Counted from the stretch's first letter, positions 2,869-63,953 are shown. The stretch is DNA of 64,000 bases from Octopus vulgaris (GCA_951406725.2 OX597831.1:14570001-14634000), one strand, 5' to 3'. Notes: generated by a model from the sequence alone, not told the origin. Translations and numbers: made by a program.

Positions 2869-3197
2869 TATATTTAAGAGATAAGGAATTATGTACACTA
2901 TTTACATTATTTACATTTGACGAATATTTGTCCTCATCTTGTTTGTTGTTAACACAACGTTTCGGCTGATATACCCTCCAGTCTTCATCAGGTGTCTTGG
3001 GGAAATTTCGAACCTGGGTTCTCATTCCTAAGGTATTTTACGATGTTATTATTATTATTATTATTATTATTATTATTATTATTATTATTATTATTATTAT
3101 TATTATTATTATTATTATTATTATTATTCAGTTCACTGCCTTGAATCGAACTCAGAATCTTGGGGTTACTAGCTCTTAACCACTACTCAATATGCCC
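2869..3197 (-). mobile_element. Second copy of the tRNA-head/(AAT)n/hammerhead composite, followed by an inverted partial copy (3199-3300)
   Basis: Reverse complement of 16901-17255. The inverted 3' half directly abuts the tRNA head. Confidence 0.78.
2951..2996 (-). ncRNA. Hammerhead ribozyme motif (intact core, one stem II mismatch)
   Basis: Minus strand reads GACAC CUGAUGA A GACUG..CAGCC GAAA CG UU GUGUU. Confidence 0.7.
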
Positions 3198-6100
3198 GAA
3201 GACACATAATGAAGGCTGGAGGGTACATCAGTCGAAACGTTGTGTTAACAACAAACAAGATGAAGATAAATATCAGTCAAATGTAAATAATGTAAATAAT
3301 CGTCTAAGATATCTGGCGGTATCAACTCCGTTTTTGTGCGTTCTGAGATCCTTGGCGTTTGATTTAATCCGTCTCTCGGCTTAACACCACGAGAATATGG
3401 TCCTGTAGATCGTTAGTTGCCTTTAGGAATGGATTCCATTATTATAGGAACCATTTGAATTCGATCGCAGGTATGGAGCTAGCTTCCTTTCTTTTCCACC
3501 CTGTAGTCCGGAAAATCCTGCAAAGATCGGGTCATGGACGCTGCCCTTTTCCACTGAATACAGAGTTTTTGTACGGTTTGTTTTGTTTTCTCCTATGGCT
3601 ATTGTCAATGTCAGGTAGGGTGTTGGGTGGTGTGTGGTTATCACCACACCAAGATCTTTTTAATTTTCCAAATATTTTATTTACCCACGTTGCCAAGTTT
3701 GCAGGTCTTTTATCTTTTGCTTCTTTCAGTCATTAGACCGCGGCCATGCTGGGGCAGCGCCTTGTAGAAGTTTTAGGTGGACGAATCGATCACTCTATTG
3801 ACGAATTGCTACCGGACGACAGTAACAAACATAAACACACTCATATACACAGAACATACAAATATAAATATGTGTGTGTATTGTATATATAAATGTAAAT
3901 ATATATGTATACATGTATTATATATGCATGCATGTGTGTTTGTATGTATTACCTATCTATATACGTATATTTTTCTCTCACTCCCTTTTGTCCCCGCGCA
4001 CGTATATATATACTTGAATAATAAATACTATATAATATATATACATATATATACATGCATATTTGGGTACAGCACGTCAGCCACAGTGCAAATAACATGA
4101 AATACTTAAACAACGAGAATAAAAAAGGTAAACAGGACAAGTTAACACAGAGAAAGGAGTGTTCACCGGTTGTCGGCTGTTCATCTACTCCCCATTTCAA
4201 GCATTCAACGACAATATGTGTCTTTAAAGACAGTTACACCCATAAATTCTAAAATAAAATTTAAGATTTATGGAAGGTCAAAGTTGAGAGCAAAAAATGA
4301 CAGTGGAAACATACAAGTTCGGTTTCCTTGTAAGTCTCCACTGGCTTGTATTCGTTCGATTTCCTTCCATGACTTCACTGTCTCCGAGGAAGCTATAAGG
4401 AAATACACAGGGATCCAGCTTTGAGTGTACTGTAGAAACAGGTGTAAGCTAATGAAATTGATTTTTAGCATCTTTATCGTTTAATTTCGTAAATACACGT
4501 ACACACACATGCACAAAAAAAAAGAAAAAGATTTTCCCAACACATTTTGTATTGAAGTTGTACAAAGTAATTTATCTAGACTCAACCGTATCTTACTCTG
4601 GTATGCTTGACACACATTCATACTTAGAAAGATTTACTACACATAAAACACGCATTTGTAAAAGCTTCCAGTCTATTATTTGGACATATTATTTAGTATT
4701 TCACGTTGAAAATCACTTACTGCCAAACGAAGGGAAAGAATACGATTTTTATAGTTAGCTGAGTTAGCCATGGGATCATCGTTGTAACCAGTAATTGCCA
4801 TTTTCGTCATGAAAAAGTTACTTCACAATATATGAACAACCGAAACTAATAAATCCGTATTAATAACTGCTGTGTAGCGGCATAGCATTGCCGTATAATG
4901 AATATATATATATATATACATATATATATATATATATATATATATATATATATATATGTGTGTGTGTGTGTGTGTGTGTGTGTGTGTGTGTGAGTGTGTG
5001 TGTGTGAGTGTCTGTGTGTGTATGTGTATGTGTGTGTGTCTCTGTGTGTATATATATATCTATATGTATATATATATATATATATATATATATATATATA
5101 TACATATATATATATATACACATACATATATATATATATATACAGAGAGAGAGAGGATATATGTACATATATATATGTGTGTGTATGTACGTGTATGTAT
5201 ATATACACTCATATATATTGTACACACATACTTATACAAGTGCGCTGTATTTTGTATGTACGTACATGTGTGAGAGTCATTACATGTATATATATATATG
5301 TGTGTGTGTGTGTGTGTGTGTGTGTGTGCGTGTGTGTGTGCGTGTTTATGCGGGTGTATGTGCATATATGCAGGTGTATATCAGTGTGTGTATGTGTGGG
5401 AACCGATCATATCGTATCTCTTCACATAATAAATACATAGAAGACACTCAGAACATCGCTCCCGCCCGGTTTCTGTCATTTCTACGGCTGTGAACATTCT
5501 TTATCGCCGCCATTGCCTGAATAAATATAAAGGCAGCCATCTTTAACACTTGCTTGTTTCCCAGCACTGCTAATGGTTTTTTTTTCTCTATCTGCAAGAC
5601 CAGTCGTTCATAGAAACTAGCAATCTTAGCAGAATTAACAATGGGATTTACACACACACACACACACACACACACACACACACACAAACACACACATACA
5701 GGCACGCAAACAATCACACACATAGAAACGCACACGCATATATGTATACATTTACACTCATACGCACACTCAAACACACACCGAAACTACATGCACATAC
5801 ACACACGCACACACACACACATATAAATGCACGTATGAACTAATATAAATATATATATGCATATGAATATTTATATATATATACTTACGTCTATGTATAT
5901 ATAGAAATATTTATATATACCCAAGCATAGATACGCACATCCGTATCTACTCACGTATATGTGTATGTAAATAAGCTTGTATGTATGTATGTATGCTGGT
6001 AAGTACGTATGTATGTTTATAGACGCATCTATCTGTCTATGTATCTATCTATCCATATATATATATATATATATATAAAAATTATTACATTATATAAAAG

Positions 6101-6293
6101 GGCTTAGTAAAATAAATTACTTTGCCGCATACTGAACTCATTAGAAATAGCAGCTAAAAAAAACTTTTTTAAAAAACTTTTTCAAAAACTATTTCCAATA
6201 CTTAAAGAAAACCTCTCTCATATAGTGTTTGCTCAATTCAACTCACGAAAGTATGGGGGTAGAGACATTAAAAAATCAAATGCAAAGGTTATT

Positions 6294-6346
6294 TGAGAAC
6301 GTACGTTTCAAGATTAGTCAAAATCGACACTTCTATCATCAGCTCA
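6294..6346 (-). ncRNA. Minimal type I hammerhead ribozyme (array unit 1)
   Basis: Minus strand reads UGAG CUGAUGA [uagaagugucgauuuugacuaaucuu] GAAA CGUACG UU CUCA: 4-bp stem I, intact core, imperfect stem II, palindromic stem III, GUU triplet. Confidence 0.75.
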
Positions 6347-6862
6347 GAACTCCCTGGTTTGGATTTGAAAACACTGAAAGTGGGAGCATACCCTTTCGGC
6401 TTGTTATCACTTCTGAAGATCTGCTCAAAACTAACAGTACCAGCAAATTCAAATATGCAAGCGAAGAATTTCTGCTCTCCTTTCCACCAGCGTGGGTTAA
6501 AATCAGCAAACACTATGCTTTTTTCGGTAAAATCCGAGGCATTATATAGAGAGAGATGAATTATAATTTCAACAATTGAGGGTAAAATTAATTAATTAAT
6601 CAATTTCACCAAGTATTCAGTATACAAAGGGACCATTTAAGGCGAATTCAAATTATTACATTATATAAAAGGGCTTAGTAAAATAAATTACTTTGCCGCA
6701 TACTGAACTCATTAGAAATAGCAGCTAAAAAAACTTTTTTAAAAAACTTTTCAAAAACTATTTCCAATACTTAAAGAAAACCTCTCTCATATAGTGTTTG
6801 CTCAATTCAACTCACGAAAGTATGGGGGTAGAGACATTAAAAAATCAAATGCAAAGGTTATT

Positions 6863-61871: not shown

Positions 61872-63837
61872 TTGTTCATTATTTACATTATTTACATTAT
61901 TTACATCTGACGGATATTTGTCCGCATCTTGTTTGTTGCTAACTCAACGTTTCGGCTGATATACCCTCCGAGGAAGGATAGGAAAATATTAGATATATAA
62001 TAATGTGTGGGTCTATGTTTGCTCCTCTTGATAACCGGTGTTGGTGCATTTATGTTCGGTAAAAGAGACCGATTGAATAAGAACGAGGTTTAAAAGAATA
62101 AGTTCGTCCGTTCGACTAAAAATTCTTCAAGGCGCTGCTCCAGCATGGCCGTAGTCAAATGACTGAGATAAGTAGAAGACAAGAAAGAAGAACCTTTTCA
62201 AATATTTCTGCCTGTGTAAGACCCTCAATGAAACATTATGCAACAAAAATTTTCTTTCCTTCGTTCTATCATGTGACATCCACATATAAAATTATATGTA
62301 ATAATAAAGGTTATTCTTTTGCGGGAATATTTCATTGAAAAGATTTGCATCAGTGAATGCCATCGATGTATAATCAGAGTAATAAAAAGGTTCCAGCAGA
62401 CTCATACAAGTAATGAGAGAGAACTTTCCAAGCAACAGGATATGGTTATTGATCTCAAATATCAGTAATTAAAATGGCGAGCTGACACGCATGGCTGCAT
62501 GCTTTGCGTTATTCCCTCAATCTTTACGTTCTGAGTTCGAATACCTCCGTGGTGGACTTTGCCATTCTTCCTTTCGGGATCGATAAAATAAATACCATTT
62601 GAACACTAGGGTCCATATAATCGACTTATCTCCACCCTGAGAGTGCTGGTTGTGTGCCAAAATTTCAAACCAATATCGAATACATCAATATATTTTTTTT
62701 ATATTGCTGGTATCAAATACATTTAAAAAAATCTCTCCAGACTTAAATTTCAATGGGCCTCACACAATTCCGTTTGAATAAGGACTCTGCGTAGGTTCAA
62801 AACAATTTATAGTAGTTCAAGGCCCATGTGTTGTAGGAGCAGACGAAAGAAGGTATTAGTTTACTGTTTATTATCCGAAGAAATCAAACTACGAGAAACC
62901 AGGGACGCAATCGCGTATAAACTCCAATTTGCCTTGAATCTCCTTTCAATTAGGAACTGCGAGTAAATCTAAACCATGCAAGCATCAAAGAACTTTTGGT
63001 GATACCAATATACTAATTGCATCTCATTGACCCATCGTTTCCGTGCATTAGCTTAGTAATCATTCCCCTATTAACTGTTTTTGAAACATCCCCGTATCTC
63101 TATCGTTCAATTTTCTCCTGTGTATTATTATTTCCATTTCAAAATTCACTCTCAAGAGTAACGTCTTTCGAATTAAGTTTACAGAACTCCCAGTTTAATG
63201 ATAATTAATGCTTGTGATAATACGAGATCAAAACAAGGTTTGTACAGCTAATGTGTTAAAGGCATTCACGCATTAATATGGCGTGGTTTTCTTTTAAAAT
63301 TTAAAATATGGCGGCATGAAAAACTGCGTAAATTTTATGTATTTATTCTTCCTTTGTGCGAGAAATGGTCAGTTGCTGCCAGTGTTTGTTTCAACAGACT
63401 ACATTAAACTGATACTGCATTTTACATATTAGGTACATTTTCCTTCGCTATTTATTACTACCACACCTCTCATAAACACACACAAAAATACACATACATG
63501 CACTTAAATATAAATCCAAAGGTACATGCATACAGATGGACACATACATATATATATAAATATATCTATCTATCTATCTATATATATATATGCATACATA
63601 CATATGATATATATATATATATATATATATATATATATATATACGTATGAGAGGGAAACCACTCTCATACGTGTATAGTACAATTTTACTGAACCTTCAG
63701 TTTTTTATATGCTACACCACTGGTGTGAAATCGATGTTAATTAAATTACTAACTAATTTCTCACCCCCATTTTAAATATATATATATAATGGTATTAATT
63801 AATTAGGAGATGGGTTTCGTATTAGACTTTTATTAGT

Positions 63838-63880
63838 TACAACATATGTTTCGACCCATCAGTTTGGGTCTCGTCAGGTA
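63838..63880 (-). ncRNA. Minimal type I hammerhead ribozyme
   Basis: Minus strand reads UAC CUGACGA GACCCA aacuga UGGGUC GAAA CAUAUG UU GUA. Confidence 0.8.
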
Positions 63881-63905
63881 CATTGATAACTTAACTTTTT
63901 AAAAT

Positions 63906-63953
63906 ATTTTTGATAAGGTTCGTTTTTTCAAGAAGAACCGAAACATGTAAAAT
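63906..63953 (+). ncRNA. Hammerhead-like motif with U3-A8 core variant
   Basis: AUUU UUGAUAA GGUUC..GAACC GAAA CAUG UA AAAU. Confidence 0.55.

Follow-up and report, generated by a model that had tools for sequence, protein, structure and literature searches.

The 64,000-nucleotide (nt) stretch of Octopus vulgaris DNA analysed here (GCA_951406725.2, OX597831.1:14570001-14634000; referred to below in its whole length as the window, with positions counted from its first nucleotide) raises the question why so many sequences resembling hammerhead ribozymes are gathered in and around one gene. An initial annotation of the sequence listed about 18 such motifs, proposed that their structure is under selection, and linked them to Penelope-like elements (PLEs) and to retrozymes devoid of long terminal repeats (non-LTR retrozymes). 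Our analysis leads us to conclude, with considerable confidence, that the motifs are minimal type I hammerheads located in the pseudo-long terminal repeats (pLTRs) of several PLE families and in short protein-less elements which likely use Penelope enzymes, and that slow cutting in dimers is to be predicted for them.

Hammerhead motifs in the window and in the genome

The strict descriptor comprised a core CUGANGA or UUGANAA, stem II of at least 3 bp, GAAA, a palindromic insert of 2-6 nt, UH and stem I of at least 3 bp. It recognised 10 minimal type I hammerheads in the window, a density not matched in shuffled DNA (means of 0.04 in 100 global dinucleotide shuffles and 0.02 in 100 shuffles within 500-nt blocks; maximum 1). 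Nine of the ten sites initially annotated as intact (6294, 6863, 7571, 10818, 17120, 26754, 42851, 63838 and 63906) passed the descriptor; the tenth, at 2951 on the minus strand, retains the core, helix III and stem I but failed because stem II is mispaired close to its base. One intact motif, at 27634-27714 on the plus strand, had been overlooked. All eight sites reported as decayed are genuine remnants of repeat families, the one at 61941 being devoid of the first half of the core and the one at 54067 belonging to a family with a domain II of 45-60 nt; further hammerhead remnants were found at 2358-2442, 48778-48852 and 24981-25128. Since three of the ten intact motifs sit in a single family B insertion, they represent eight independent intact insertions. 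A scan with Rfam models, checked for the 150 of 374 matches listed, was dominated by microsatellite matches to microRNA models and gave Hammerhead_1 at 63838-63880 only (29.9 bits, E 0.0025), with a score below the cut-off of 34.

Every motif searched lies in a multi-copy repeat. The motifs in the window span about 12 repeat families, which had been described as unrelated; for H1, H2 and H3 this does not hold, as they turn out to be related to one another. The hammerhead elements of the window are the following:

2860-3195, minus strand: family A element with a tRNA-like head at about 3129-3195, (AAT)n, a hammerhead at 2951-2997 with a stem II mismatch, and a fixed 3' tail
3195-3300, plus strand: inverted 5' partial copy of family A, core decayed, with a PLE-type inverted junction
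6079-7924, both strands: family B retrozyme insertion of about 560-nt monomers, tandem and inverted, with an 8-nt helix III palindrome and a GUU site; intact hammerheads at 6294-6346 (minus), 6863-6915 (minus) and 7571-7623 (plus)
10662-10855, minus strand: family G 3' end, U3-A8 hammerhead at 10818-10854, 4-nt A/U palindrome
16900-17264, plus strand: full-length family A element with a tRNA-like head containing motifs that resemble A and B boxes, (AAT)n(AAC)n and an intact hammerhead at 17120-17165, sense in a host intron
21296-21488, plus strand: decayed 3' end of the H3 lineage with an A6U core; its relatives are terminal repeats of the young intact PLE L235
24981-25128: perfect fold-back of a family I-related 3' end that turns midway through the helix III palindrome
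26684-27057, minus strand: family C 3' end, intact hammerhead at 26754-26805; relatives stand behind a Hydra-type GIY-YIG frame and are mostly U4C
27558-27928, plus strand: family I 3' end, intact hammerhead at 27634-27714; relatives stand about 580 nt behind a Hydra-type GIY-YIG frame
28316-28518, plus strand: family H1, an element of about 200 nt in (TA)n; the family core is U4C and this copy is decayed
35186-35305, plus strand: decayed relative of family C
42685-43253, minus strand: family D monomer (about 525-530 nt), intact hammerhead at 42851-42926 with a long domain II
44888-45142, copy on the minus strand: family G copy and its inverted partner, stem II decayed
47258-47451, plus strand: decayed family H2 copy, related to H1 and H3; canonical core in locus L180
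48778-48852, minus strand: family A fragment cut off in stem II
54010-54152, minus strand: remnant of family J with a long domain II, its core lying 58 nt upstream of GAAA and its stem I unpaired
61878-61969, minus strand: family A fragment cut off in stem II, first core half absent
63787-63889, minus strand: family E 3' end, intact hammerhead at 63838-63880, the one with the Hammerhead_1 match
63889-64000, plus strand: family F 3' end, U3-A8 hammerhead at 63906-63953, a terminal repeat of the PLE lineage with a 781-amino-acid frame for reverse transcriptase (RT) and GIY-YIG endonuclease

Most of these copies are truncated leftovers and are predicted to be inert. The family F copy ends at (TA)n just past the window edge. 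The copy at 54067 was at one point taken as truncated in stem II, and this reading was dropped as its relatives have a long domain II.

Several other features of the window touch on the same elements. Families E and F meet at their 5' ends (63787-64000), possibly through a template switch between two PLE families in a single insertion, and the perfect 148-nt hairpin at 24981-25128 hints, as one case, that a palindrome can seed fold-back during insertion. Fold-back insertions at 25427-25920 and 27950-28230 adjoin (TA)n, with no hammerhead recognised in either; the former has a match about 1.1-1.3 kb downstream of the L123 PLE frame. An inverted repeat pair at 41930-42345, of which no relatives were found in the genomic loci retrieved, contains a hammerhead-like core at 42186 whose domain II is long and whose stem I is extended, a clear helix III and UH being absent. 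The sequences at 10024-10070 and 34770-34810 are hammerhead-like remnants (core, GAAA and short palindrome, with one stem missing), single-copy among the loci retrieved. A rough descriptor for permuted or split-core hammerheads (CUGANGA downstream of GAAA and the cut site), uncalibrated on a known example, recognised none in the window and, in a 1.2-Mb sample of the genome, 18 against 6-9 in shuffles.

This sample comprised 120 evenly spaced 10-kb stretches of the 2.8-Gb genome, taken at round coordinates rather than by random draw. It contained 29 strict matches in 20 of the stretches, seven of them from one array (bootstrap range 15-48; 0-3 in ten shuffles), and ten further motifs with U4C or A6U cores (0-1 in shuffles). 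The density of strict motifs is 156 per Mb in the window and 24 per Mb in the sample, the window being about six-fold richer. Extrapolation to the genome gives about 65,000 strict motifs (30,000-110,000) and about 20,000 variant-core motifs, and a count by homology, in which 11 families gave 65 motif-spanning copies in 1.2 Mb, corresponds to about 150,000 copies genome-wide, decayed ones included. The proposal of a very large ribozyme-bearing system is thereby upheld, but its extrapolation from the window overstates the genome about sixfold.

Selection at the level of structure, also suggested previously, is supported by an excess of palindromes and by 3/8 pairs restricted to Watson-Crick combinations, both obtained in tests that do not presuppose it. 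When a palindrome was not required and stems I and II were set at 4 bp or more, helix III was palindromic in 27 motifs and non-palindromic in 11 (shuffle means of 0.1 and 0.4, respectively). The tertiary 3/8 pair was C-G in 12 motifs, U-A in 5 and G-C in 3, with no A-U, C-A or U-G combination. Related families, e.g. family I and its relatives, exchange palindromes and stem pairs in a compensating manner, as judged by inspection and not by a formal statistic. As genomic copies decay after insertion (78-94% identity within family A), the selection acted on source elements. According to computed energies helix III as a monomer hairpin is either impossible or unfavourable by +2.4 to +6 kcal/mol, the self-duplexes that the window's 6-8-nt palindromes can form reach -4.6 to -11.1 kcal/mol, and duplexes across families are never better than -3.0 kcal/mol.

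Penelope-linked and protein-less carrier families

The suggested link with Penelope elements and retrozymes has been corroborated: four families (F, H3, I and C) are tied to RT and/or GIY-YIG frames, and two (B and D) consist of tandem monomers without an open reading frame (ORF). A GIY-YIG search of the octopus genome gave 148 matches, many of them within 781-codon frames. In the family F lineage the 781-amino-acid frame of locus L118 matches RVT_1 and, C-terminally, GIY-YIG, the Pfam scores lying in part below the curated cut-offs. In L118-L120 the frame is flanked by direct repeats of 299-504 nt that match family F, the motifs there failing the strict scan, and an F-type motif is situated downstream of the endonuclease in L070-L074, L076, L077 and L121. 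A second open frame, without a Pfam family, lies upstream of the RT frame in this lineage (L118:906-1982, L120:768-2204); PLEs are usually described with one frame.

The H3 lineage is represented by L235 (G000:C17:32787500-32795500), in which a 1132-codon open frame encodes RT, a CxxxxCxxC linker and GIY-YIG (Pfam scores again partly under the curated cut-offs) and is bounded on either side by an A6U hammerhead, the two being identical and 4496 nt apart. This element has copies on six chromosomes that are 98-99.8% identical, and L238 likewise carries two A6U motifs as terminal repeats. The lineage of the window copy at 21354 includes many near-identical genomic copies, which extend into this second PLE. 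F and H3 are endonuclease-bearing PLEs with hammerheads in pLTRs on both sides of the frame. For family I an endonuclease frame was found 580-910 nt upstream of the hammerhead in three independent search loci as well as in L088 and L175, and for family C in one locus, within the same range of distances. Inspection of the L305 and L313 frames revealed CxxC and CxH flanking the E and N of the endonuclease, as described for the Hydra clade.

In comparison with the Neptune clade (Craig et al. 2021, PMC8557442), F and H3 share RT, the CX2-5CxxC linker ahead of a C-terminal GIY-YIG (found in the L118 and L235 proteins) and the preference for (TA)n, and I and C share with the Hydra clade of that work the endonuclease CxxC and CxH on either side of E and N. 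These clade calls are based on motifs and not on trees, and Nematis shares the linker; the octopus entries seen in that paper are Naiads.

A fixed 3' end, a variable 5' end and inverted 5' copies recur across the families. The 3' end adjoins (TA)n in 14 of 15 copies of F, 41 of 45 of H1, 25 of 28 of I and 49 of 51 of H3, about half of the H3 copies being near-identical search hits (89-96% in these four; background 8%), and in 29-56% of the copies of A, C, D, E and G. Fixed 3' ends, 5' truncation, inverted 5' copies and microsatellite targets are the insertion marks of PLEs (PMC8557442).

Among the families without an identified protein partner, family B is ORF-less and has a period of 559-560 nt; 25 of 29 units in two arrays are intact, L126 contains 11 tandem units and one inverted, and the base of stem II is formed by a U-U pair resembling that of axolotl HHR_Amex2. 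Family D monomers of about 525-530 nt are tandem in 3 of 16 loci and inverted elsewhere. By the sequence definition of such elements B and D would be classed as non-LTR retrozymes. Like the metazoan retrozymes (PMC7229834; bioRxiv 10.64898/2026.07.22.740005) they are tandem and carry one type I hammerhead per ORF-less unit; their monomers of 525-560 nt are above the 150-450 nt of the former report and inside the 51-972 nt of the latter. No cephalopod is studied in the accessible parts of these papers. Another retrozyme array, at L011:2307-4513, is built of 359-nt monomers, five tandem and two inverted, all intact. The family B sequence also occurs in 14 sequencing runs that are only guessed to be RNA; these are contigs whose ends and strand cannot be read, and they were not used as evidence.

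Family A begins with a tRNA-like head, in which A and B boxes were recognised by inspection, and continues with (AAT)n and a tail bearing the hammerhead; five of six head matches in the 1.2-Mb sample continue into the hammerhead tail. ARAGORN detected no tRNA in the heads of seven of seven loci. With Sm-alpha and Sj-alpha of Schistosoma (reviewed in PMC6765202) family A has in common a short non-coding element with a head of the RNA polymerase III (Pol III) type and a hammerhead, but its hammerhead is of the minimal PLE type, it contains internal (AAT)n, and its copies are mostly single or head-to-head inverted and not in tandem arrays. Families E, G, H1, H2 and J occur as short 3' pieces or as short elements. 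In the family J relatives L315-L322 helix III and the 3' tail are kept, and the 45-60-nt domain II diverges strongly between copies. The PLE pieces lying next to D (L308), next to a B relative (L177) and next to an A copy (L005) were considered as partners and judged to be separate insertions.

Variant cores

The H3-lineage set consisted of 35 copies after near-identical search hits and duplicate stretches had been dropped; the pattern that collected them left positions 6-9 free and put a partial constraint on the GAAA side. At position 6, 30 copies have U, 3 have A and 2 have C, and position 7 is evenly spread (A 9, U 9, G 9, C 8), while G8 is retained in 31 of 35 and A9 in all 35, and N17 is never G. 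A relative with the canonical core stands behind a related endonuclease in L137. The A6U core is carried in both terminal repeats of a young, intact, autonomous PLE (L235), and the lineage likely represents a slowed but still selected ribozyme.

U4C is the majority state in family C, where 10 of 15 relatives have it at the matched site, and in H1, and is also present in the PLE of L122/L124; some canonical-looking copies in U4C families may be products of CpG decay of U4C. A G3-C8 family, absent from the window, is a short abundant repeat with a 7-bp stem I and nine motif-spanning copies in 1.2 Mb (examples are L019:8285, minus strand; L198:3033, minus, and 3070, plus; L294 and L306), and a second G3-C8 motif follows the PLE endonuclease in L160.

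U3-A8, U4C (in a viroid) and A6C (in phage Bcep176) are known natural variants, slow yet active (PMC3088659, PMC7151607), and U4C keeps its in vivo function in a viroid. A6U and G3-C8 are absent from those accounts, as far as accessible, and are fixed in high-copy octopus families. None of A6U, U4C and G3-C8 occurs among the 56 representatives of PMC4209133 in its available text and supplement portions. No A6U or natural G3-C8 was found in the literature searched, which covered neither most subscription papers nor Lunse 2017, so that their absence from print is not established.

Mechanism, alternatives and significance

The mechanism considered here is modelled on PMC4209133 and PMC7229834. 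A transcript that reads on from a pLTR into the following one, or across a tandem array, would carry two like hammerheads. Being self-complementary, the helix III strands of the two would pair to form a dimer, and slow cutting would release unit-length RNA, to be ligated and likely circularised. The Penelope RT-endonuclease would then copy the unit RNA into AT-rich DNA at a nick, with a start point 90-220 nt downstream of the ribozyme. Because copying would begin there, even short truncated copies retain the motif, which would explain its density. A lone intronic copy without a like partner in cis is not expected to cut the host pre-mRNA. The identity of the motifs as PLE-type hammerheads is the part of which we are most confident; slow dimer cleavage as their predicted working function seems probable, with clearly more room for doubt.

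Several observations weigh against this account. The 4-nt palindromes form self-duplexes weakly or unfavourably (-1.7 and +2.2 kcal/mol, computed), and (TA)n adjacency is found in under half of the copies of A (4 of 14), E (9 of 23) and G (16 of 41). The 5' ends of genomic copies show no pile-up at the cut site (11 families, 0-18 copies each), no autonomous partner of A, B, D, E, G, H1, H2 or J was found within about 2 Mb of fetched DNA, and all fetched copies of I and C are 5'-truncated, RT being retrieved for neither. In published assays the activity of the dimer and trimer of a Schistosoma motif was low, eight of nine Xenopus retrozyme dimers remained uncut in vitro, and A6 changes, such as A6C, are known to slow cleavage strongly.

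The gene present in the window codes for a protein that shares 99% identity with one of Octopus sinensis named glutamic acid-rich protein-like, with the following exons:

12388-13566, plus strand: the first exon with coding sequence, for an octopus acidic secreted protein; its splice donor is near 13562
27350-27466, plus strand: internal exon
53272-53622, plus strand: exon; the last ~100 residues of the protein are encoded beyond the window

The protein appears restricted to octopus (three homologues found), is acidic, begins in the manner of a signal peptide, contains many dibasic sites and is rich in cysteine at its end, a set of features suggestive of a granin or prohormone; the open frame at 18169-18765 is a possible alternative exon. 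A Pfam search of the host and repeat frames of the window matched no family. A putative mariner-like transposase remnant at 58189-59400 is split by an 18-bp minisatellite of 22 copies (58296-58699).

All motifs from 17120 onward are intronic, and the intact motifs at 17120, 27634 and 63906 lie on the sense strand, as expected if they had been co-opted for regulation of the gene through pre-mRNA cutting or circular RNAs. Those at 26754, 42851 and 63838 are antisense, so that neither strand is favoured; the sense copies come from different families whose palindromes match poorly, each is 90-100% like dispersed copies elsewhere, and neighbouring copies are decaying. We consider such co-option very improbable and reject it, no tie being seen between the motifs and the function of the gene. 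Chance matches in AT-rich, repeat-rich DNA are of still lower, practically negligible probability. A few strict matches of the genome sample with 2-nt A/U inserts do look accidental, in keeping with the 0-3 obtained per 1.2 Mb of shuffled sequence; for the window a chance origin is already refuted by the enrichment (10 motifs where 0.02-0.04 are expected), the 3/8-pair pattern, the intact state of the same motifs in most family copies and their fixed place behind PLE frames.

A more serious alternative, which we nevertheless regard as unlikely, holds that the fold is mainly a non-cutting cis signal, for RNA dimerisation or recognition by the Penelope RT-endonuclease, and that the A6U, U4C and G3-C8 cores could spread because catalysis is vestigial. 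It would accommodate a young intact element with A6U in both pLTRs, the dominance of U4C in C and H1 and its presence in the L122/L124 PLE, and, from the points raised above, the cut site without a 5'-end pile-up and the low published activity. Against it, the A6U lineage keeps G8, A9, G12-A14 and a non-G N17 while N7 is free (the GAAA side being partly constrained by the search), the 3/8 pair, which matters for the active fold, varies only among Watson-Crick pairs, and U4C is functional in a viroid. On balance we prefer dimer-dependent hammerheads of PLE type. A far-reaching version of this reading is possible but doubtful: active octopus PLEs would keep non-consensus cores (A6U fixed across a diversified lineage, U4C in at least three lineages, G3-C8 in another family with thousands of copies), the genome would amount to a natural mutational scan of about 100,000 dimer-gated ribozymes whose rate is tuned down on purpose, family-specific palindromes would block cross-cutting, and a tRNA-headed short interspersed nuclear element (SINE) would ride on Penelope enzymes and not on those of long interspersed nuclear elements (LINEs).

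Hammerheads with a diminished stem III were reportedly shown by Lunse, Weinberg and Breaker in 2017 to cleave as dimers and to be associated with PLEs, in a collection said to number about 150,000. The short helix III and the PLE association are common to the octopus motifs, and dimer cleavage is only predicted here. With the pLTR hammerheads of PMC4209133 they share a short stem I, palindromic positions 15.2-16.2, the additional base that follows A9 in several families and the U3-A8 variant, as well as mostly single truncated copies, opposite-strand pairs and many families per genome. The octopus palindromes are often longer (6-8 nt), and the motifs are denser, about 24 per Mb as compared with 4,000 motifs per genome in coelacanth and 9,000 in Xenopus; cephalopods are missing from the table and alignment of that work as available. 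A giant squid paper counted 235 Rfam matches. No paper on octopus hammerheads was found in the literature searched, in which subscription coverage was limited, and their absence from print is not established. The system is of a known kind, that of PLE and retrozyme hammerheads, with new core variants.

In its accessible text the 2026 repeat annotation of Octopus vulgaris (PMC13282606) leaves ribozymes unmentioned and reports 893 SINE families as unclassified and recently active, and these hammerhead elements may account for some of them. As regards the role of hammerheads in Penelope transposition, the activity published so far is low, and no in vivo test was found in the literature read. Since young intact F and H3 elements, pure tandem retrozymes and natural core variants are present in one genome, the need for cutting becomes directly testable, and the A6U element is the foremost case for asking whether cutting is needed at all.

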